Below, piece by piece: positions 6,283-41,307 of a stretch of 64,000 nucleotides of DNA. A program made the position numbers and the translations under genes. This DNA comes from Candidatus Saccharimonadales bacterium (GTDB lineage: Bacteria; Chloroflexota; Dormibacteria; Aeolococcales; Aeolococcaceae): the NCBI GenBank assembly GCA_035532495.1, contig DATKQX010000082.1, forward strand, positions 4,399 to 68,398, written 5' to 3'. The notes beneath the pieces are model-generated. The model searched no databases and was not told where the DNA came from. It worked only from the letters and a program-made list of their open reading frames with translations. The stretch's first letter is position 1; each line of letters opens with the position of its first letter.

Positions 6283-8557
6283 CCGCAAAGAGCGCGCGCC
6301 GCCACGTGTGCAGCGCCACTGCGCGCTCCTGCAACGACGCCCCCTCAGGGCTGAACTCTGCGCGTGCGGTCACCGCCGCAAGCTGGCTCAGCGCGTCCCC
6401 GGCACGGGGACGTGCCTTCGCCAACCGCGCCGCGTAGGCACGGTGGGTCTCGGCTCGTCGCCGGTCCATACCCGACATGACGCCGAGGGCTTCGACGCGA
6501 CGCCAGGCCCCGTTGAGCGACCGAGGCAGCGCCAGCCAGAGGAGCGCGGCAACGATCAGGACGAGCGCCCCACCGAGAACGGCGAGCGCTCCGATCACGG
6601 GTGCGGGAATCCCCGGGCGGCTCGTGGGGGTGTTGGTGGCGCCGGGGTCACCGCCGCCGAAGCCGCGCGCCGGCGTCGGGGTGCCCCTGAGGACCGGCGA
6701 GGCGGACGGGATTGGGGGGCCGGAGACCGCTTGCGTGCCGCGCGGCGGGGTCTCGTAGTCGCCCTGTGCCGACGGCGGCGTGGGCTCGAATGGGATCCAT
6801 CCGTACCCTGGAAAGTAGGCCTCGACCCAGCTGTGCGCATCGCTCGTGCTCACCGTCTGCTCCCGCAGCCCCTGGCGTCCGCTCTGGGCCCGCGTCGTGC
6901 CGGGGCCGTAGCCGCTCACGAGCCGGGTCGGGATGCCGAGCGTCCGGAGCATCGTGCCCATCGCCGACGCGAAGTACTGGCAGTACCCGCGGTGGCTGAC
7001 GGTGAGGAAGTACACGACGGGCCAGGTCGATTGGGGCACCGCAGGCGGAGTGAGGGTGTACTGGAAAAAGGCCGGATTGCGAAGATGGTTCTGGATCGCC
7101 GTCGCCTCGTCGAACGGATTGGTCTGGCCGGACGTCCACTGCTTCGCGAGATTGGCAATGGTCGCGATGCTGTGGCTGCCGTCGTCCTTGGTCTCGGTGT
7201 ACGGCGAGGTCCACGACGGGTAATTCAGACCGGCGTTCTCGAGCTGGGTCGCGGTCGCCGTGGAGACGAGCGACGTCGACTGCACCGTCGTGCCGTTGAG
7301 GATGTCCTGGCCGAGCTGGACGTCGTCGACGGACAGGAGCAGATCCGGAGCCGTCGGTGCGACGGCACCGTATGCGGTCCCCGGAAGGTTCACCGCGTAG
7401 GGATCGCCTGCAAACGGCACGAGCGGTTGCTGGCCGGTGGCGCCTTTCTGCATCACGATGGTCGCCTGCACCTGCTGTTGGTCAGCGCCGACGCCACCGT
7501 GGGCCGGATCGGTGTCACGGGGCAACGGCCCACCCGAGAAGGGCACGTCGTTCCACGTGTTCGACGTCGGGCCGTTGATGCCCGTCTGCGGAAACCAGCT
7601 GCCGTCGACGAACTGCGTGTCGTCCTCGACGCGGATGTACGCCGGCACATTGTTGGTCGTCGTGTATGTCAGCTCGAGGTGCGGCTTGCTCACCAGCGGA
7701 CCACCGAGCTCGACCGACGGGTTGAAGCCGATGGTCGCGACGCCGCCGCCGGGCTGGCTACCGCCCTTCCCGGAGTTGCCGATGCCGGCACGCGGGAACA
7801 GACGCGACGAGATATCGGTGTTCGTCAACGGCGGAACGAGCAGCGCGACCACGGTGAGGCCGACAGCCACTGCCGCGGCGCTGCTCCCGAACCGAACGCG
7901 CATCCCTCCGATCGGCGTGATCCGCGCCGCCACCCAGCGGTCGCCGAGCGCACCGAGGTACGCCGCCGCGATGACAGCGAGCGACAGGACGACCGCGACC
8001 GTTTCCGGGAAGGCAATCGGATCCGGGTCCTTCGCGTTGACGACATTGGTGGCAAGAACGGAGAAGACCGGGATGACCGCGAGCACGCCGCGGTGCTCTC
8101 GGAGCGCCACCCAGCCGAGCCAGTATCCGCAGAGGAAGAGGATGGCGCACAGGCCGACGGTGAATTCCCAGTCGGTGGATGCGGCCAGCCCCGTGACGAG
8201 TGCGCGAACGTAGTGCCCGGCGATCGAGCCCACGGTCTGTCCTGCGACCGGTGGCATCGCCGCAAGCGTTGTGGGAACGATCGCGGCGAGCCCGAGAAAC
8301 GGTCCCGCGATGGCAGCCGCGATGCGCGGGGCACGCGCCTGCGCCAGCAGCGCAGCCTCCACCACCGACGTCACGGCCACGACCGCAGCGCCACCGCCGC
8401 CATTCACCCAGCCCGCGGCGAGCACCGCCCACGCGGTCGCGGCGATCAGGGCGACACAGAGCGCCGCGCCGATCTCGAAGGTGTAGTTCCTGATCGGCTC
8501 GGGTTTGGGGTGCGCGCGGTCACGGAGTTGAACGCTACGGTCGACCCAGACTTCCAT
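6251..8557 (-). CDS. transglutaminase-domain membrane protein (TgpA-like)
   Basis: Multi-TM N-terminal half, then the transglutaminase core (GYCQYFASAMGTMLRTLGIPTRLVSGY...DAHSWVEAYFPGYGWIPFEPTP). I place the start at ATG 8557 (MEVWVDRS...), 4 nt after the DUF58 stop. The 172-aa Ser/Arg-rich extension in the track ORF is unlikely to be real. Confidence 0.85.
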   Translation of the reverse strand: MEVWVDRSVQLRDRAHPKPEPIRNYTFEIGAALCVALIAATAWAVLAAGWVNGGGGAAVVAVTSVVEAALLAQARAPRIAAAIAGPFLGLAAIVPTTLAAMPPVAGQTVGSIAGHYVRALVTGLAASTDWEFTVGLCAILFLCGYWLGWVALREHRGVLAVIPVFSVLATNVVNAKDPDPIAFPETVAVVLSLAVIAAAYLGALGDRWVAARITPIGGMRVRFGSSAAAVAVGLTVVALLVPPLTNTDISSRLFPRAGIGNSGKGGSQPGGGVATIGFNPSVELGGPLVSKPHLELTYTTTNNVPAYIRVEDDTQFVDGSWFPQTGINGPTSNTWNDVPFSGGPLPRDTDPAHGGVGADQQQVQATIVMQKGATGQQPLVPFAGDPYAVNLPGTAYGAVAPTAPDLLLSVDDVQLGQDILNGTTVQSTSLVSTATATQLENAGLNYPSWTSPYTETKDDGSHSIATIANLAKQWTSGQTNPFDEATAIQNHLRNPAFFQYTLTPPAVPQSTWPVVYFLTVSHRGYCQYFASAMGTMLRTLGIPTRLVSGYGPGTTRAQSGRQGLREQTVSTSDAHSWVEAYFPGYGWIPFEPTPPSAQGDYETPPRGTQAVSGPPIPSASPVLRGTPTPARGFGGGDPGATNTPTSRPGIPAPVIGALAVLGGALVLIVAALLWLALPRSLNGAWRRVEALGVMSGMDRRRAETHRAYAARLAKARPRAGDALSQLAAVTARAEFSPEGASLQERAVALHTWRRALFAARPRLGRSPG

Positions 8558-8561
8558 CGAA

Positions 8562-9755
8562 TCAGCCGGTTGCCGACGAGCGTTCGCCGGTGCCGAGCAC
8601 GTCGCCGCGGCGGACGACCCACCAGTCCAGCGCGAGCCGCCAGGCGGCGGGGATGCGAAGGGCCTGTCCCTTGGCGCCGAACGACGTCGGCTCGACGAAG
8701 ATGCACAGGTGGCGCTGACCGCGGGTCGCGCTGTCGACGAGCGCCTCAACCCATTCGCTCGACCGGTTGGCCGTGATGACGACCATACCGCCGCGGCCCC
8801 GCCAACCCTCGCCGTGCCGGGTGATCGTCTCGGCGAGGCTGCGCACACCGTCGTCGGTGGCAAGCGCCAGGTAGTCGAGAATTCGGAGCCGCTGTACCTC
8901 GCCGCGTCCGGCGCCGAAACCTGTGCCGCCCTTGCCGTTGGTGACCATTCCGACGGCCTGGCCGCGACGGATGGCGCCGTGCACGACCGAGGCGCAGATC
9001 GAGACCGCGTACTCGACCGACGACTCGATCCCGCTGCCGGCGTGGATGCCGCGCTGAAGGTCGAGAACGACAAGGAGATCCGCGCTCTGGCCGGTGTCGA
9101 ATGTGCGACTGATCAACCGTCCGGTGCGCGCAGTGGATGCCCAGTGAATCCTGCTCAGCCCGTCGGTCGGCGCGTAATCGCGAATCGTCGAGACGTCCGG
9201 AGGCACGTCGACCGGCTGGCCACGACGGGCCTCGGCGACGCCGTTGCCGCTCCACTGCGGCACCACCTGGAGAAGGGCATGGAGCGCCGGATAGACGATG
9301 ACCTCGTTCTCCGGGGCCACCCGGATCCGTTTCGGGAACAGCCCGAACGGGTCGCCGAGGCGCGCCTCGAGCGGCCCGAAGTGATGGATGCCGCGAAGGT
9401 TGAACGCGCCTCGGGCCGTCCACGTGACGCTGCCATTCGCCGCCAGTGAGAAGGCTCGGCCGGGAGCGTAGCCGGGAAGCTTCGTGCCGTCGCGCACCTC
9501 GCAGTACGGGAGGCGCAGGCCGCTCGTGTTCTTGACGGTGAAGGTTTCCTCGAACGGCTCGCCCATCATGAACGACCCCTGCGGCGACTCACGGATGACA
9601 CGCAGCTTGCGCGCGAGGAGCCGCGACCAGACGTATGCGACCGCGAGCAGCAGGATGAGGACGTACGCCAACGTATATGCAAGGTGGATCCCCGTGATCC
9701 CTGCAAAAAAGGCCAGCACCGCGACACACGCGATCAGCGGTACCCGCGCGGTCAC
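8562..9755 (-). CDS. DUF58-domain protein (vWA-like partner of MoxR)
   Basis: 397 aa with an N-terminal TM hairpin and the DUF58 signature region (DYAPTDGLSRIHWASTARTGRLISRTF). It lies between moxR and the transglutaminase gene. Confidence 0.85.
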   Translation of the reverse strand: MTARVPLIACVAVLAFFAGITGIHLAYTLAYVLILLLAVAYVWSRLLARKLRVIRESPQGSFMMGEPFEETFTVKNTSGLRLPYCEVRDGTKLPGYAPGRAFSLAANGSVTWTARGAFNLRGIHHFGPLEARLGDPFGLFPKRIRVAPENEVIVYPALHALLQVVPQWSGNGVAEARRGQPVDVPPDVSTIRDYAPTDGLSRIHWASTARTGRLISRTFDTGQSADLLVVLDLQRGIHAGSGIESSVEYAVSICASVVHGAIRRGQAVGMVTNGKGGTGFGAGRGEVQRLRILDYLALATDDGVRSLAETITRHGEGWRGRGGMVVITANRSSEWVEALVDSATRGQRHLCIFVEPTSFGAKGQALRIPAAWRLALDWWVVRRGDVLGTGERSSATG

Positions 9756-9786
9756 GACGCGCCCACGGTGCGCACCGCGATCGCCG

Positions 9787-10743
9787 TCACGCCAGGCGCC
9801 GGCCCGTCATCGGCACGGACTCGGTCGCCAGGATCTCCTCGAGCACCGCTGCCGCGGTGAGCCCACGCAGCTCGGCGTTCGGACGCAGCACCACGCGATG
9901 CTCCAGCACGTTGGGCGCGATGTCCTTGATGTCGTCCGGCAGCACGAAGTCGCGGCCGCCGAGTGCCGCACGGGCCTGTCCCGCATGGAGCAGACCGAGC
10001 GTGCCGCGTGGCGAGGCTCCGAGCGACACGTCGCGGTGCTCCCGGGTGCGCCGGACGATGCGAACGCAGTAGTCCTTGAGGGTGGCATCGCAGTAGATGT
10101 CGCGGCAGACCTCCTGCGCCGCCTTGATCTCGACTGAGTCGGTCACCGCTTTGAGCGTCCCGAGCGGGCTCCCGGACTGGAATCGGTCGAGCATCGCCAC
10201 CTCCTCGTTCGCGGGCAGGTAGCCCAGCTTCAGCTTCAGGAGAAAGCGGTCGACCTGTGCTTCGGGAAGCGGGAATGTGCCGCCCAGTTCGATCGGGTTC
10301 TGCGTGGCGAGCACCATGAACGGATCGGGCAGTGGATGGCTGGTGCCGTCGACGGTGACCTGCCACTCCTCCATCGCCTCGAGCAATGCCGACTGCGTCT
10401 TCGGCGTCGCACGGTTGATCTCGTCAGCGAGCAGCACCTGGGCGAAGATCGGCCCGCGACGGAATTCGAACGTCTGCTGCTGCGGGTTGTAGACACTCAC
10501 GCCGGTCACGTCGCCGGGGAGCAGGTCCGGGGTGAACTGGACTCGCTCGAAACTGCAGCCGCTGCTGCGGGCGAGTGCCTTGGCGAGCAGGGTCTTGCCG
10601 GTACCCGGGACATCCTCGATGAGCAGGTGGCCCCGACAGAGGAGCCCGACAATACAGAGTTCGATCTCTGCTTCCTTCCCAACGATTACCGTCCCGAGGC
10701 TCTCCTGCAGACGCCGTGCCATTGCCTGGACGTCGACATTCAT
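9787..10743 (-). CDS. MoxR-family AAA+ ATPase
   Basis: 318 aa with Walker A GVPGTGKT, Walker B LLADEINRA and FTPDLLPGDVTG, all typical of MoxR. Confidence 0.9.
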   Translation of the reverse strand: MNVDVQAMARRLQESLGTVIVGKEAEIELCIVGLLCRGHLLIEDVPGTGKTLLAKALARSSGCSFERVQFTPDLLPGDVTGVSVYNPQQQTFEFRRGPIFAQVLLADEINRATPKTQSALLEAMEEWQVTVDGTSHPLPDPFMVLATQNPIELGGTFPLPEAQVDRFLLKLKLGYLPANEEVAMLDRFQSGSPLGTLKAVTDSVEIKAAQEVCRDIYCDATLKDYCVRIVRRTREHRDVSLGASPRGTLGLLHAGQARAALGGRDFVLPDDIKDIAPNVLEHRVVLRPNAELRGLTAAAVLEEILATESVPMTGRRLA

Positions 10744-10932
10744 GGTGAATCCTCGCGCTGTCTCTACCGGCTGGTGAGTGACTGTGAACTCGTCTGGAGT
10801 ATACGTTCGCCAGATACGCTCCCAGCATCACCCAGGAGGGTGATCCACACGCCTACCCCAAAGCGTTGTATAACTGCACCTACGAGGTCCACGTCTGGGT
10901 CTTCGCTGGTCGACGGTCTGGAGGAGGAGGAA

Positions 10933-11190
10933 TTGGCAGAGCGCGAGGAGGAGATCCTCACAACTGGCGAAGCGGCGGCACTCTGCGGTGTGTCCCGTTC
11001 GACGCTGCGCCGCGCCGTCGCTCAGGGGCATTTGCGCGCTTGGCACACGCCGGGGAAGCACCTCCGGTTCACACGCGCCGCATGCCTTGAGTTCGCCCAG
11101 TCGCTCGGCCGGGTAGATCTGATCGGGCAGTCATACCGCGAGGCTCCCGTCTCGGGCCAGCCCGCGCAGGCAGGGGCAGTCGGGGTCTAG
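10933..11190 (+). CDS. small helix-turn-helix DNA-binding protein (excisionase/MerR-like HTH)
   Basis: The C-terminal part of track ORF 10336-11190 reads LTTGEAAALCGVSRSTLRRAVAQGHLRAWHTPGKHLRF. Everything upstream is antisense to moxR. TTG 10933 follows a GGAGGAGGAGGA Shine-Dalgarno run. The start is uncertain (CTG 10906 is possible). Confidence 0.55.
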   Translation: MAEREEEILTTGEAAALCGVSRSTLRRAVAQGHLRAWHTPGKHLRFTRAACLEFAQSLGRVDLIGQSYREAPVSGQPAQAGAVGV

Positions 11191-36789: not shown

Positions 36790-36839
36790 TTAGCACTCGG
36801 CTCGGCAGACTGCTAGCGGGTGGCGGCGGCGAGTGCTAA
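36790..36839. promoter_or_regulatory. CIRCE (HrcA operator) with atypical geometry
   Basis: TTAGCACTC sits at 36790-36798. After 9 nt comes GACTGCTAG (36808-36816, 7/9 match to GAGTGCTAA). A perfect GAGTGCTAA follows at 36831-36839, giving a 32-nt spacing. The element lies 46-95 nt upstream of groEL. Confidence 0.8.
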
Positions 36840-36901
36840 GGCGCTGGGGCACGCGGAGCGACAATGGAGTCAGCAGCCGTGGCCGCTACCGTCTCGTCAG
36901 C

Positions 36902-37324
36902 GTGACGTCTTCCGTGATCCGATACGGAGAACTGCCAGGCGTGCCGGTGGGTTCTGTCTTTTCAAGCCGACAAGCGCCTCGGGAAGCCGGCATGCATCGG
37001 CCTCTTCAGGCCGGCATCGACTTCGCCGCCGGCCAGGCCGCGTCGTCAGTCGTCATGTCCGGTGTCTACCCAGATGACGATCAAGGCGATGTCGTCATCT
37101 ACACAGGTCAGGGTGGGCTCCAGCCCGGAACGTCCAGGGCGATCGCGGATCAGAAGCCGATTCTCGGAAACGCGGGTTTGATTCGCTCCCGACACTTTGG
37201 CGTTCCGGTTCGGCTTGTCCGCAAGGTCGGGCTCACCGTGCAGCGTGAACGGCGCGCATCCCGATGGCGCGTTGCCCGCGGGCGCCTGCGGCACATGGCT
37301 GTCGCGGTCTTCGAGGAGGTCGAG
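36902..37324 (+). pseudogene. SRA/YDG (5-methylcytosine-reader) domain ORF, apparently truncated with no effector domain
   Basis: From GTG 36902: IRYGELPGVPVGSVFSSRQAPREAGMHRPLQAGIDF...SVVMSGVYPDDDQGDVVIYTGQGG...DQKPILGNAGLIRSRHFGVPVRLVRK matches SRA motif blocks 1-2. The YDG-type third block is absent. The frame has no stop until 37789, but beyond about 37325 it is antisense to a better-supported minus-strand gene. About one third of third positions are A/T (hand count over roughly 108 codons). Confidence 0.55.
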
Positions 37325-37720
37325 TCACATCTTGACCTTGCCGCGCAGACGCTCCACTGCCTCCGCAAGGTCCCACACCGTCTCGAGCGCACGGTTCAAC
37401 TCGGACGCCGTCGGCGGCAACTCATAGACGCGATGGTGGCAGGCACTGGAAAGGGAGTTCCACGTCAGCATCGCGCGCCCGCCCAGCTCTCGGTCGTTGA
37501 GCATGTCGCCGACGCACAGCAATTGACAGCGCGTCGAGGTTCGTTCCAGCCCGGGTGCGGTGGCCTGCCACAGCCGCACCATGGCAAGCTCCAGCCCCTG
37601 GCGCGCAAGCAGTGCCGCGGCTCGAGGCCACAGCCCTGCGGTCGTCGCATCGTCATCACGGATAAGATCACGCGCTGCGGACACGAGCGCATGCGCGTCC
37701 ACCACCGGCGCACCACGCAT
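37325..37720 (-). CDS. 131-aa all-helical protein, putative paralog of the ATPase C-terminal domain (HEPN/DUF4145-like features)
   Basis: Its ATG shares one nt with the ATPase stop (TGATG). Minus-frame third positions are much more G/C-rich than the overlapping plus frame. Motifs R40-Q-G-L-E44 and ACHH (94-96). Confidence 0.7.
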   Translation of the reverse strand: MRGAPVVDAHALVSAARDLIRDDDATTAGLWPRAAALLARQGLELAMVRLWQATAPGLERTSTRCQLLCVGDMLNDRELGGRAMLTWNSLSSACHHRVYELPPTASELNRALETVWDLAEAVERLRGKVKM

Positions 37721-40158
37721 CAGTGCGCCTCAAGCATCTTCGTGGTCAGCTGCTCGACGCTGCGGATGAACTCGCGCATGTCCCCGTAGACCTTCCCGCT
37801 GTGCGTCCCGCGGTTGCACTCCTTGACTGCATCGACGGCCCACGGGTGGTGCTTGAATAGATACGCCGCGACATCCCCGGCTCGGTCAGCATCGTGCAAC
37901 AACGCGAGCGCCAGCCACATGTTCAGCGTGGTCGGCTTCTGGAGCGTCGCCTCGACCTCGGCGTACGACCTGCCCTGACGCAGCAGATGCCGCGTCGCGG
38001 CACGTGACGAGGCCGCCTCGAGCGCCAGCCTACAGAACCCCGGCACGACACGGAGCGCCTCCGCGGGTAGATCTCTGCTGTTCGCAACAGCGAACGCATC
38101 GTCGATGTAGCGCTGCACGGGATCCTGGATCCGCCGCAGCTCCACGACCGATTGGTCACGCCGCACCACTTCGATCACCGTTGCCGCAATATCGAGCGCA
38201 CTCATCGCATCGGCCAGGCGCGTGTCATGTGTGAGGACGATCACCTGGCGCTCCTTCGCGGCGCGAGCGAGCACCTGCGCGAGCCCCGCGACCTTGGCCG
38301 GGTCCATCGCCTGTACCGGGTCGTCGATGACCACGAAGCGAAACGGCGACTCCGGCATCGACGCGCGCGGCAGAAACAGCGACAGAGCAAGGCAGTTGAG
38401 CTCACCCTGGCTCATGACGCCGAGCGCGGATCCATCCTCGCCATCGACCTTGACGTCGAGCGACAGACGGCGCTGTGTTTGCGCGCCGCGCAGGCGCAAC
38501 TCTCCAAGCGAGACGTTGCTGTCCTGGCGCAACTGCGTCCAGTTCTCCTGCACCGCGCGGGCGATGGGACGGAAACGCTCGTCGCGCAACTCGTCGTGCG
38601 CATCCTTCAGCCAGCGCTCGGCGTCCTTGAGTCGAGTGACCTCGTGCTCGGCCCCCTGCGCACGGCGTCCAAGCGGCAACCACAACGCAATGGCGTCCGC
38701 AGCGGGCCGCCAGGCTCGCTCCAATCGCTCGAGCTCGGCGGCTGCGGCGCGGCGAAGGTCGCCGACCGCTGCGATGAGCGGTGGTCCATACGTTTCGAGA
38801 TGGCTGGCCAAAGCGAGCGCGTCATCGTCCGCGGCCACGCCGGACCACTGCTCCCAGACCCGGACCGCTGGGTCGATGTCGATCCCCGCCCCCGCGCTGT
38901 CGCGAAGTGTTCGCAGCGGTGCGGTCACGAGCTGCCTCGCCTGCCGCATTGCGTTGTCGAGCATGGTGTGGGCCTTGCGCACCGCTTCGGCGTCCGCTCG
39001 GAGCGCCACCATCTCGTCGCGCGCCCGCACACGCCACTGATAGGTGAGGACCCCTTCGGAGCCGCAAACGGGGCACCGTTCACTCTCCGCGTGCGCATGC
39101 ATGTCGAGCGCCTGCTGGAGCAGCGACGCCACGTCGTGCGCTCGTCCCGCATCGGTGCTGCGCAATCGCTCAGCGGCGCCGTGCGCGTCGCGCAGCTCAG
39201 TGATCGCAATGTTGACGCGCTCGCGGTCCAGCACGGGCAGGCCGGCGAGGTCCCGGAGCTTGCGGAGAACGATGCTCTCGTCACTCTGTGCGTCACCACC
39301 GACGGTGCTCGCAACCACGCCCAGGTCCCACGCCTTGGACGCGAGCGCCGCGCGAACCACGTCGGCACGTTCATCTGTTGTCCGCTCGAGCAGCCCGCGC
39401 AGCTGCGGTACCGCATCGCGCGCCGCCTTGATATCGTGCTCGCGATCCAGGCGAGCCTTCTGCAACACCTGCTGCGCCGCAGCGAGATCACCGAGCCCCA
39501 GGATGCCGGCGACCGCGTCATAGAGCTTCGACTGCTCGCGGTCGAGCGCATGCTCGAGCTCGTTATGCGAAAGGAGCGGCGGGTAGCCCGCGAGTTGTTG
39601 CGTCCACCCGAGGGAATCCGGTGACGCCACCTTGCCGTCGACGGTCAGCGTCGAACCCTCGACGCCGTCGCCATCTTTCCAGACTCGCGCCACGTCGAGC
39701 GCCTGCCTGCGTCCGTCGATGGCGAAGCGCGCGGCCACCCGCGTATGCCGGTGATGCAGGTTCTGCCATCCGTCGCGCCACACCTTGACGCGCTGTTCCC
39801 AGCGCTGGTTGGTGCCCAGCAACACCATTTCGAGCGCTTCGGAGAACGACGACTTCCCCGAACCGTTGCGGCCGACGACCAATGTCAGTCCGGGTCCCGG
39901 ATCGATGTGCAGTGTCGCCGGTGGCCCGACGCCCCGAAAGCCCTCGACCTCGATGGCGGTGAGGTACGCCGCCGACGGCGCGGCCGCCGCGGCGATCTGC
40001 GTTGCGGACGCCGCCGCCGAACCCTCCTCACCCCGCAACGCCGCATCGACGGATGACGCACCCTGGAAGGCGGCGATGATGAGGTCGGCCGCGCCGGGCG
40101 CCGGTGGATCTGAGTCGATGCGGTCGACGACGAGGGCGAGCAGCGCGGTATCAGGCAT
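37720..40158 (-). CDS. SbcC/Rad50/RloC-like ABC ATPase with CxxC zinc hook and extra C-terminal helical domain
   Basis: 812 aa. Walker A GRNGSGKSS (aa 96-104), long helical insert with CPVCGS (aa 362-367), signature SQGELNCLALSLFL, Walker B FRFVVIDDP, H-loop VLTHD, then a helical tail of about 130 aa (aa ~683-812). Confidence 0.85.
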   Translation of the reverse strand: MPDTALLALVVDRIDSDPPAPGAADLIIAAFQGASSVDAALRGEEGSAAASATQIAAAAAPSAAYLTAIEVEGFRGVGPPATLHIDPGPGLTLVVGRNGSGKSSFSEALEMVLLGTNQRWEQRVKVWRDGWQNLHHRHTRVAARFAIDGRRQALDVARVWKDGDGVEGSTLTVDGKVASPDSLGWTQQLAGYPPLLSHNELEHALDREQSKLYDAVAGILGLGDLAAAQQVLQKARLDREHDIKAARDAVPQLRGLLERTTDERADVVRAALASKAWDLGVVASTVGGDAQSDESIVLRKLRDLAGLPVLDRERVNIAITELRDAHGAAERLRSTDAGRAHDVASLLQQALDMHAHAESERCPVCGSEGVLTYQWRVRARDEMVALRADAEAVRKAHTMLDNAMRQARQLVTAPLRTLRDSAGAGIDIDPAVRVWEQWSGVAADDDALALASHLETYGPPLIAAVGDLRRAAAAELERLERAWRPAADAIALWLPLGRRAQGAEHEVTRLKDAERWLKDAHDELRDERFRPIARAVQENWTQLRQDSNVSLGELRLRGAQTQRRLSLDVKVDGEDGSALGVMSQGELNCLALSLFLPRASMPESPFRFVVIDDPVQAMDPAKVAGLAQVLARAAKERQVIVLTHDTRLADAMSALDIAATVIEVVRRDQSVVELRRIQDPVQRYIDDAFAVANSRDLPAEALRVVPGFCRLALEAASSRAATRHLLRQGRSYAEVEATLQKPTTLNMWLALALLHDADRAGDVAAYLFKHHPWAVDAVKECNRGTHSGKVYGDMREFIRSVEQLTTKMLEAH

Positions 40159-40633
40159 CGGGCATCGTCGGTGAGCTGGTCACGCGTTTCAAGACGATTT
40201 CATCAGGTGTCCTGCCGTGGTCGACGAAGTACGTCGCACGTGTCCCGTCCTTCTCGAGATGCACCAGCGAACCGACCTTGAACGTGTCCGCGGGCACCGT
40301 GAGCGGCGGTTTGCGCGGCGGCGTCTGAACCGGCGGGTCAGGCGGTGCGGGCGTCGCCGTGGGCGCGGTGGACATGGCCGCACGCTCGCGCCGCACGTGG
40401 TGGCGGTGGACGGTAACGCCGACGGCGATCGCCGTCAGCACCAGGACGGGGACGCTGATGTACCAGTACGCGATGCTCAACGCGAGCACGACCGCAAGCA
40501 CGATGTATCCGACGCAGCCGATGCCACCTGTGGCTCGGGCTGCCTGCCGGGCGGCATGGTGGGGACGCCTGGCGTAGGTCGACAACCCCGCCCAAAACCC
40601 TCCCGGAAGTCGATGGCCCAGAGAGAAGCGCAC
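40151..40633 (-). CDS. two-TM membrane protein with Pro-rich linker and small C-terminal globular domain
   Basis: Its stop overlaps the ATPase ATG by 8 nt. TM hairpin GCVGYIVLAVVLALSIAYWYISVPVLVLTAIAVGV, then TPAPPDPPVQTPPRKPP, then FKVGSLVHLEKDGTRATYFVDHGRTPDEIVLKRV. The start is GTG 40633 or TTG 40585. The track ORF start at 40876 would be antisense to the HD gene. Confidence 0.65.
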   Translation of the reverse strand: MRFSLGHRLPGGFWAGLSTYARRPHHAARQAARATGGIGCVGYIVLAVVLALSIAYWYISVPVLVLTAIAVGVTVHRHHVRRERAAMSTAPTATPAPPDPPVQTPPRKPPLTVPADTFKVGSLVHLEKDGTRATYFVDHGRTPDEIVLKRVTSSPTMPDA

Positions 40634-40698: not shown

Positions 40699-41307
40699 GT
40701 GCCCGAACGCGACACCGCCGCTCCACCACTGACCCGCCGCTTCGCCACGGCGTTCGCGCTCGCCTGGGCCGTCCATGGGGATCAGTTCCGCAAGAAGACC
40801 GGCATTCCCTACATGGCGCACGTGATGTCGGTCTGCGCGCTCGCCATGGAGCACGGCGCCGACGAGGACGTCGCAATCGCCGCGCTCCTCCACGACACCG
40901 TCGAGGACTCCGATGACGGCGCCGCCACCCTCAGCGTCATTGAGGACCAGTTCGGGGAACGGGTCGCACGCATCGTGCTGGCGTGCAGCGATGCTGTCGC
41001 CGTTCCTGATCAACCCAAGCCCGACTGGCGCGAGCGGAAGGACCAATACCTCCATCATCTCGACGTCGACGCAGATGACGACGTCCTGCTCGTCTCGGCG
41101 TGCGACAAGGTCCACAACTCGAGCGCGATCCTCGGGGACCTCCGCAGCGAGGGCGACATCGTTTGGCAACGCTTCACGGTCTCGGACCCGGACCAGCAAC
41201 TCTGGTACTACACGCGCGTCGCGGAGATCCTGCAACGCAGACTGCCGGGACCGCTGACCGACGATCTCGGCCGCATCGTCGGAGCGATCGCCGCACTCGT
41301 TCCCTGA
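40699..41307 (+). CDS. stand-alone RelA/SpoT-type HD hydrolase (small alarmone hydrolase-like)
   Basis: AVHGDQFRKKTGIPYMAHVMSVCALAMEHGADEDVAIAALLHDTVEDS...FGERVARIV matches the (p)ppGpp-hydrolase HD domain. 202 aa with no synthetase domain. Confidence 0.75.
   Translation: MPERDTAAPPLTRRFATAFALAWAVHGDQFRKKTGIPYMAHVMSVCALAMEHGADEDVAIAALLHDTVEDSDDGAATLSVIEDQFGERVARIVLACSDAVAVPDQPKPDWRERKDQYLHHLDVDADDDVLLVSACDKVHNSSAILGDLRSEGDIVWQRFTVSDPDQQLWYYTRVAEILQRRLPGPLTDDLGRIVGAIAALVP

Follow-up and report, generated by a model that had tools for sequence, protein, structure and literature searches.

A conserved pair of genes, encoding a Rad50/SMC-like ATP-binding cassette (ABC) ATPase with a zinc-hook motif and a small stand-alone helical protein, lies on the minus strand of a 64,000-nucleotide (nt) stretch of contig DATKQX010000082.1 (assembly GCA_035532495.1, Candidatus Saccharimonadales bacterium, placed among the Dormibacteria by GTDB). 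This whole stretch is referred to here as the window. The parts of the ATPase stand in the order described for RloC, the two genes are coupled and conserved together, the small protein (the partner) is a distant paralogue of the C-terminal domain of the ATPase (the tail), and the pair has a patchy, mobile distribution. We are highly confident of this two-gene, RloC-like architecture. As to what it does, the pair is a reasonable candidate for a defense or stress system: a function in biological conflict is somewhat favored, ribonuclease (RNase) chemistry falls a little short of an even prospect, and the complete reading, that of a two-component RloC-like sensor-effector module, we regard as evenly poised.

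The conserved unit is two genes

The initial annotation of the window had described a cassette of three coupled genes: a two-transmembrane protein (gene 1), the ATPase (gene 2), and the partner (gene 3). Three overlapping minus-strand open reading frames (ORFs) can indeed be read directly from the DNA at the positions and with the overlaps then given. The TGA of gene 1 overlaps the ATG of gene 2 by 8 nt (ATGCCTGA), and in the TGATG at the gene 2/gene 3 junction the A is common to the gene 2 stop and the gene 3 start.

Homologues were sought in one genome per GTDB species (185,579 species genomes). At least 578 loci were found, of which 80 were kept, and locus comparisons drew on 84 loci in all. 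The partner lies immediately 3' of the ATPase in 80 of the 84, the four exceptions being contigs that end at the ATPase. The short overlap of the two genes is conserved: in 68 of 71 loci the partner begins between -22 and +7 nt from the ATPase stop, most commonly at -4. The more alike two ATPases are, the more alike are their partners (pairwise identities, r = 0.93). Gene 1 homologues, on the other hand, are present in only 24 of the 84 loci, all of them close Dormibacteria, and all-against-all BLAST of four called genes per side revealed no conserved third gene beyond lineage-specific neighbors. Because the partner is near-universal, gene 1 is confined to close Dormibacteria, and no other gene is conserved, the conserved unit consists of the ATPase and its partner, not of three genes. 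The proposed co-occurrence thus holds across phyla for these two and fails for gene 1 outside one clade.

Full-length ATPase homologues of ~810 to 818 residues share 52 to 92% identity within Candidatus Dormibacterota, and those of other phyla among the 80 kept loci share 41 to 49% over the whole length. The carriers outside Dormibacterota include Actinomycetota, seven Streptomyces among them, as well as Thermoleophilia, Acidobacteriota (Vicinamibacteria), Gemmatimonadota, and Chloroflexota (Dehalococcoidia and Limnocylindrales); the pair is patchily spread over at least five phyla of soil bacteria. RefSeq names its members "AAA family ATPase" and "hypothetical protein," and an overlapping pair with these names is borne by the Streptomyces plasmid pM92.

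Two loci depart from the common pattern. In an Acidimicrobiaceae locus (L059), the partner is inverted and upstream (7459-7941, minus strand) of an ATPase (7950-10940, plus strand) with ~170 extra C-terminal residues. The metagenome-assembled genome (MAG) MFD01188.bin.2.123 has two ATPase-partner pairs on separate contigs, which could be paralogy or strain heterogeneity of the bin.

The ATPase combines an ABC head, a hook insert, and a helical tail

Pfam recognizes a split ABC head in gene 2 (SMC_N, 2.6e-18, together with AAA_21 and AAA_23), and sequence searches pair the head with structures of SMC and Rad50. The motif coordinates given by the initial annotation for this gene are correct by arithmetic on the translation. 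A CPVC motif sits near the middle of an insert of ~480 residues that separates Walker A from the ABC signature and that, judging from the architecture, would form an antiparallel coiled coil. All ABC motifs and CPVC are at least 97% conserved among 69 diverse homologues, and the motifs are therefore not a product of chance. Scanned alone against Pfam and PADLOC (E up to 10), the presumptive coiled-coil region gave nothing usable. Long ORFs of up to 490 amino acids, among them one at 38152-39624 on the plus strand, run antisense to gene 2; they are unsupported as genes, and such ORFs commonly arise where the GC content is high.

The tail is all-helical and carries conserved residues of its own. 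In the last 140 residues of the same 69 homologues, D687, A688, C709, R710, E714, A715, and G729 are at least 97% conserved. The AlphaFold2 (AF2) model of the tail, built from an alignment of 30 sequences, has seven helices with a mean predicted local distance difference test (pLDDT) value of 89.3. When it was compared to the PDB with Foldseek, 11 of the 16 top entries were HEPN toxins or domains, at template modeling (TM) scores of 0.24 to 0.44 and E values of 0.3 or more.

The RloC-type order of parts noted in the initial annotation (ABC head, CxxC hook insert, extra C-terminal helical domain) is therefore all seen. The defining features of RloC are the ABC motifs, an insert with a coiled coil and a CxxC hook, and, in the C-domain, the triad Arg-X3-Glu-X36-52-His, which is R692, E696, and H737 in GkaRloC (PMC2610378). 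Our comparison with RloC went through this published description and the Pfam AAA_13 profile. On that basis the two are alike in length (~800 residues), in the succession of Walker A, hook insert, signature, Walker B, H-loop, and a helical C-domain of ~140 residues, and in having an Arg-x3-Glu and a downstream His in the C-domain, R710 and E714 lying at nearly the same positions as their counterparts in GkaRloC. They also share a lateral, patchy spread and sometimes adjoin restriction genes. Whereas RloC acts alone, the module described here has an obligate second gene, which encodes a free paralogue of the C-domain. RloC is found mainly in Proteobacteria, Bacteroidetes, and Firmicutes (PMC2610378), in contrast to the soil Dormibacterota, Actinomycetota, and Acidobacteriota of the present module, and its nuclease has been demonstrated, while that of the module here is putative. 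It is RloC-like on paper, not a demonstrated member of the RloC family.

The partner is a distant paralogue of the tail and probably HEPN-like

Across phyla, the partner conserves W31, P32, R33, R40, (Q41), E44, Q66, C69, W87, H95, Y99, and E107. Its R40-x3-E44-x50-H95 fits the triad pattern of RloC and PrrC. The AF2 model of the partner (alignment of 60 sequences) has five helices at a pLDDT of 93.4, and in Foldseek its top TM scores all belong to HEPN crystal structures, namely 1wwp (0.54/0.58), 2hsb (0.59/0.61), and 2q00 (0.63/0.68), the last superposing with a root mean square deviation of 3.9 Å. HepT (7bxo) scores 0.51 and the Sacsin HEPN domain 0.45; generic bundles of four helices, cytochrome b562 among them, are lower at ~0.35 to 0.4. 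Foldseek assigns the three top structures a probability of 0.98 to 0.99, yet nonsignificant E values of 0.15 to 0.66, and E values overall run from 0.15 to 0.9. From the model, the fold of the partner is probably HEPN-like. Against viral structures (BFVD), Foldseek gave no match to the model.

Many members of the partner family outside Dormibacteria contain the string RACHHHxY, which is R-x4-H-x-Y-like; the window partner reads SACHHRVY, in which other residues stand in place of the Arg and of the last His of RACHHH. Clustered at 90% identity the family falls into at least 2327 groups, and at 50% identity into at least 1315. Among the best 120 and 150 matches, all members stand alone, with lengths of ~90 to 230 residues, mostly 115 to 150, and those with precomputed Pfam annotation have no Pfam domain. 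In our profile test for HEPN, the sole trace of a curated family was a faint DUF4145 match (E = 0.18) in one homologue.

We then asked how the partner relates to the tail, of which the initial annotation had called it a small copy. BLASTP of gene 3 against the tail produced no alignment, and hhalign with shallow, Dormibacteria-only alignments gave nonsignificant E values of 0.095 to 0.16. With deeper alignments from all loci (77 partners and 80 tails), hhalign yielded a local score of 29.8 over 94 columns (P = 4e-4). The controls scored 11.0 for the reversed alignment, a mean of 11.8 and a maximum of 18 for 60 column shuffles, and a mean of 17.8 and a maximum of 22.3 for 60 shuffles of 8-column blocks. 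In the alignment, R-Q-A-L-E of the partner is matched with C-R-x-A-L-E-A in the tail, whose C-N-R-G-x-H comes to lie next to the C-H-H region of the partner. The two models have a common helix order, with helices at 9 to 21 and 30 to 55 and a His that ends the penultimate long helix. As the deep-alignment score exceeds all shuffle controls, the view of the partner as a distant paralogue of the tail is supported.

Named systems match the head and not the module

At curated cutoffs, no model of Pfam, NCBIfam (June 2026), or PADLOC (v2) describes the full-length ATPase, which is met only by the generic ABC-head models SMC_N, AAA_21, and AAA_23. The same libraries have no model for either the tail or the partner, in agreement with the statement of the initial annotation that it knew of no named system pairing such an ATPase with a two-transmembrane partner and a small copy of its C-terminal domain. 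The large partner family goes undetected by the current models of these libraries.

The best PADLOC matches of the ATPase are Lamassu LmuB, MADS MAD3, HEC-01A, PDC-S06, Gabija GajA, and PARIS AriA, with E values of 1e-24 to 1e-12, and they involve the ABC head only. The strongest, always partial, are mad3 (profile positions 191 to 332 of 374), LmuB (75 bits), HEC-01A, and PDC-S06. In these SMC-like ATPase systems the matches cover Walker A or the signature and Walker B alone, and their partners (LmuA/C, TOPRIM proteins, methylases) are absent here. No named defense family with the present partners emerged from PADLOC, in which gene 3 matched nothing. SbcC, RecN, SMC, Lamassu, MADS, Gabija, and PARIS were all rejected as identities, as each offers a generic head match while its partner genes are missing.

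Other known systems share single aspects of the module. PrrC and the ABC-HEPN fusions of the HEPN superfamily survey (APECO1_4465, ERFG_01251; PMC3710099) likewise have an ABC ATPase regulator fused to a C-terminal helical effector domain, and restriction enzymes lie nearby in some lineages, as GmrSD and SRA-HNH do near the present module. In contrast, PrrC has neither a coiled coil nor a hook inserted and relies on the type I restriction-modification system linked to it; a small paralogous subunit of its own is not reported for any of these families, and the module here is without a HEPN profile match. Rad50 and SbcC resemble the ATPase in their split ABC head, CPVCG-type zinc hook, and antiparallel coiled-coil arm (predicted here), whereas the arm here is much shorter and an extra C-terminal domain is present. 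The HEPN-MNT system (HepT-MntA) and the minimal HEPN proteins (1wwp, 2hsb, 2q00, 7bxo) resemble the partner in modeled fold, at TM scores of 0.51 to 0.68. They differ in that the Arg and second His of RACHHH are not conserved in the window clade and that no sequence profile matches; no MNT family was found among the neighbors, the gene upstream of the partner being the ~815-residue ATPase. In the literature searched, which the 2020 ABC ATPase classification lies outside, a search for a named system of this architecture returned RloC/PrrC and descriptions of ABC-HEPN proteins in general, and nothing closer. Systems of the ABC-HEPN and RloC-like kinds are already known; that literature contains no account of one in these phyla whose effector domain has an obligatory paralogue as a free protein.

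A putative sensor-effector module and its alternatives

In GkaRloC, the hook and an ATPase activity that depends on DNA act as the switch of the nuclease (PMC3458546). PrrC and RloC both have C-domains that have been placed in the HEPN superfamily, and fusions of ABC and HEPN parts, of which several have been described, are an established architecture of conflict systems (PMC3710099). A comparable mechanism may be envisaged here. The ATPase would dimerize via its heads and hook, as in Rad50 and RloC, and would sense DNA ends, damage, or foreign DNA. An ATP- and hook-dependent rearrangement would then control a HEPN-like effector made of the tail and its small paralogue. These two might form a composite heterodimeric RNase site, or the paralogue might cap the tail until activation. 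The expected output would be cleavage of RNA (tRNA, rRNA, or mRNA) and translation arrest.

Several observations weigh against such a module. Four- and five-helix bundles are generic folds, and no significant sequence or structure match links tail or partner to HEPN or RloC, the Foldseek E values being 0.15 or higher. The tail has no Pfam or PADLOC match at E up to 10 and an empty PDB profile search; the partner has no Pfam, NCBIfam, or PADLOC match at E up to 10, and PDB profile searches with gene 3 returned nothing meaningful. The canonical HEPN Rx4-6H is not intact in either protein of the window, and the C-N-R-G-x-H of the tail does not have its spacing. Compared to RloC, the only conserved His of the tail (H786) lies 71 residues past the Glu instead of 36 to 52, and the match to the RloC/PrrC family of Pfam (AAA_13) reaches 31.6 bits where the cutoff is 36. 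This match aligns ATPase residues 576 to 648 to profile positions 493 to 573 of 713, the Walker B region only, and leaves the C-domain unaligned. A tblastn search of 50,697 phage records with the ATPase found no homologue. In Dormibacteria the cassette is syntenic, vertically inherited, and of ordinary GC content, with partner identities of 60 to 93% against 52 to 92% for the ATPase; given the synteny, the ordinary GC content, and this strong purifying selection on the partner, it looks more like a stable cellular function than like fast-turnover defense. Many neighbors elsewhere are housekeeping genes, such as those for GlmS, a UvrA-like protein, and P-type ATPases.

The most far-reaching form of the sensor-effector reading is a widespread two-component immune system of soil bacteria. 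Its hook ATPase would sense phage or broken DNA and assemble or unmask a heterodimeric HEPN-type RNase from tail and paralogue, and it may back up type IV restriction (GmrSD, SRA-HNH) as PrrC does type I. We put this forward tentatively, as clearly less probable than the sensor-effector module in general. If the sensor-effector reading in general holds, the principle of RloC and PrrC, a suicidal RNase under the gate of an ABC ATPase that senses DNA, would gain a two-subunit design with the effector domain duplicated as a free subunit, and would reach Dormibacterota, Actinomycetota, Acidobacteriota, Gemmatimonadota, and Chloroflexota, whose defense repertoires are poorly charted. The module is directly testable, as it is small (3 kb) and carried by cultured Streptomyces, in one case on a sequenced plasmid.

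Among the alternatives, the one that fares best, although we hold it to be improbable, is a non-nucleolytic SMC/Rad50-like complex for DNA maintenance or repair. Here the hook ATPase would tether or scan DNA, and tail and partner would be structural or regulatory non-enzymes of kleisin or MukE type. SMC and Rad50 are the nearest matches of the heads, the hook motif is of Rad50 type, RefSeq attaches a Gene Ontology term for double-strand break repair, and the stable synteny and vertical inheritance across Dormibacteria would suit such a role, as would some repair neighbors (a UvrA-like protein in L044, SbcC in L061, and a UvrD-like protein on pM92). However, none of the 84 loci has a conserved phosphoesterase neighbor of Mre11/SbcD type or another nuclease partner. 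NCBIfam models of Rad50 score 15 to 22 bits against cutoffs of 450 to 1087, and those of SMC and RecF are likewise far below theirs, so profile searches do not place the protein in a housekeeping repair family, a possibility that the initial annotation had said would overturn its claim. The canonical SbcC next door in L061 indicates that the cassette is not the SbcC of the cell and is an extra system. The distribution is patchy and includes plasmid copies, and the invariant residues of tail and partner are polar (Arg, Glu, His, Tyr), typical of an active site and not of a scaffold. Should repair or maintenance nevertheless prove to be its role, the pair would represent a Rad50-like accessory machine of a new kind, one that has no nuclease to go with it.

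Somewhat less probable again is an addiction or stress module of toxin-antitoxin type, with the tailed ATPase as toxin and the paralogue as a decoy antitoxin at the tail dimer interface, serving to stabilize mobile DNA or to impose dormancy and not to sense phage. In its favor, the operon is tightly coupled and its small second gene highly conserved, the module is carried on plasmids, and HEPN toxins are commonly neutralized by a partner from the same operon (PMC3710099 and the PDB entries matched); the Dormibacteria cassette also lies beside a variable segment that can hold Phd/PIN and DUF222-HNH genes. Yet the small gene follows the large one, unlike in most type II systems, and an 815-residue hook ATPase is an elaborate sensor for simple addiction. 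A pure decoy would have no use for the conserved Arg/Glu/His/Tyr cluster that the partner retains, and across long evolutionary distances the cassette has a syntenic place in the chromosome.

The least probable alternative, applicable within one clade only, is the three-gene system of the initial annotation with the two-transmembrane protein as membrane effector or anchor of the ATPase-partner complex: the 8-nt overlap in the window, a gene 1 ORF that, in 20 of its 24 loci, stops at +8 counted from the start of the ATPase, and a strongly conserved C-terminal domain of ~55 residues speak for it, while gene 1 is absent from all of at least 48 loci outside the close clade and from distant Dormibacteria such as L003, an HD_4 gene intervenes between gene 1 and the ATPase in two loci (L002 and L023), and gene 1 always accompanies HD_4 and may simply belong to the syntenic block of that gene.

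Genomic surroundings

In Dormibacteria, the HD_4 gene is the syntenic upstream neighbor of the cassette, joined in the close clade by the two-transmembrane gene. Downstream lies a short variable segment, followed by groEL. Depending on the genome, the segment holds a 424-residue protein without a Pfam match, DUF222-HNH, Phd/PIN, DUF6036, an ADP-ribosylglycohydrolase, or an intact SRA-HNH gene. In the window, it has shrunk to a truncated SRA gene, and the ~424-residue protein is absent. This locus reflects vertical inheritance at a modestly variable site, not a dense defense island, and the GC content of the cassette is about that of its flanks. Promoter, terminator, and Rfam scans of the region returned nothing informative.

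The decayed SRA ORF and the stand-alone HD hydrolase reported beside the cassette are both real (Table 1). The SRA ORF (36833-37789, plus strand) is 318 residues long, of which only residues 24 to 136 are homologous by BLASTP to the intact 289-residue SRA-HNH protein of L001, which has SAD_SRA and HNH_2 domains. The remainder runs antisense through gene 3 and is nonhomologous, and the HNH part is lost. By these comparisons, the ORF represents a truncated SRA-HNH (type IV restriction-like) gene.

Outside Dormibacteria, the neighbors are heterogeneous and often related to conflict or mobility. GmrSD is directly upstream (-1) of the ATPase in seven Streptomyces (L066, L072, L075, L076, L078, L079, and L080) and at -2, one gene away, in a Vicinamibacterales locus of the Acidobacteriota (L038). 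Further neighbors are PglZ at +1 (L068), an HIT-PLD-ResIII-DUF3427 protein (L051), an SNF2 helicase (L057), MAD3-like ATPases in three loci, transposases on both sides (L040), and NikA (L072). An adenylate/guanylate cyclase-AAA_16-TPR protein of ~880 to 990 residues is at +1 in six Actinomycetota MAGs (L037, L039, L043, L046, L050, and L055), and the pM92 copy adjoins NB-ARC/TPR and UvrD-like genes. The accessory context suggested by the initial annotation thus applies elsewhere, where the module is patchy, mobile, plasmid borne, and near GmrSD, PglZ, or transposases, and not to the window site, which is syntenic, vertically inherited, and of normal GC content.

Table 1. Features of the cassette and its neighbors in the window
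Feature	Coordinates	Strand	Details
Gene 1	40151-40633	minus	ORF open to 40876; two-transmembrane protein
Gene 2	37720-40158	minus	812-residue Rad50/SMC-like ABC ATPase with hook insert and C-terminal helical domain; core gene
Walker A/P-loop GRNGSGKSS (aa 96-104, K102)	39847-39873	minus	G96 to S104 at least 97% conserved (n = 69)
Zinc-hook CPVC (aa 362-365)	39064-39075	minus	C362, P363, V364, and C365 at least 97% conserved (n = 69)
ABC signature SQGEL (aa 583-587)	38398-38412	minus	Translation and homologue alignment
Walker B/D-loop FVVIDD(P) (aa 608-613)	38320-38337	minus	Translation and homologue alignment
H-loop THD (aa 643-645)	38224-38232	minus	T643, H644, and D645 at least 97% conserved
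C-terminal all-helical domain (aa 672-812)	37723-38145	minus	Putatively HEPN-like; AF2 model and conservation
R710-x3-E714	38017-38031	minus	Both residues at least 97% conserved (n = 69)
N782-R-G-x-H786	37801-37815	minus	H786 at least 90% conserved (n = 69)
Gene 3	37325-37720	minus	131-residue stand-alone helical protein; partner of the ATPase
SRA-HNH remnant, SRA domain only	36902-37240	plus	Pfam SAD_SRA, 1e-25, aa 31-132
Divergent HD_4 (RelA/SpoT-hydrolase-like) gene	40699-41307	plus	Pfam HD_4, 9.4e-20; synteny

Some further observations concern these neighbors. The adjacency of GmrSD and the ATPase recalls the linkage of PrrC to restriction. The conserved ~424-residue protein lies directly after the partner in 14 Dormibacteria loci, for example at 10892-12199 of L002. 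HD_4 also occurs at +1 in a Vicinamibacterales locus (L058, 4652-5332) and at +4 in a Thermoleophilia locus (L082, 13829-14443), which may be chance or a hint of a link to nucleotide signaling.

Gene 1

Gene 1 encodes two transmembrane segments, a Pro-rich linker, and the conserved C-terminal domain, and has no significant family match in Pfam, NCBIfam, or PADLOC. This makeup is as first described, with a proposed length of about 145 to 160 residues. The start is uncertain; residues upstream of the transmembrane hairpin are conserved in its relatives, so the protein has at least ~160 residues. Gene 1 is a clade-specific, cotranslated upstream addition that retains its 8-nt overlap within the clade and that the family at large does not require. 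Its last ~55 residues (40151-40330, minus strand; PPLTVPADTFKVGSLVHLEKDGTRATYFVDHGRTPDEIVLKRVT) show hardly any variation among 22 relatives, in contrast to the freely varying Pro-rich linker.

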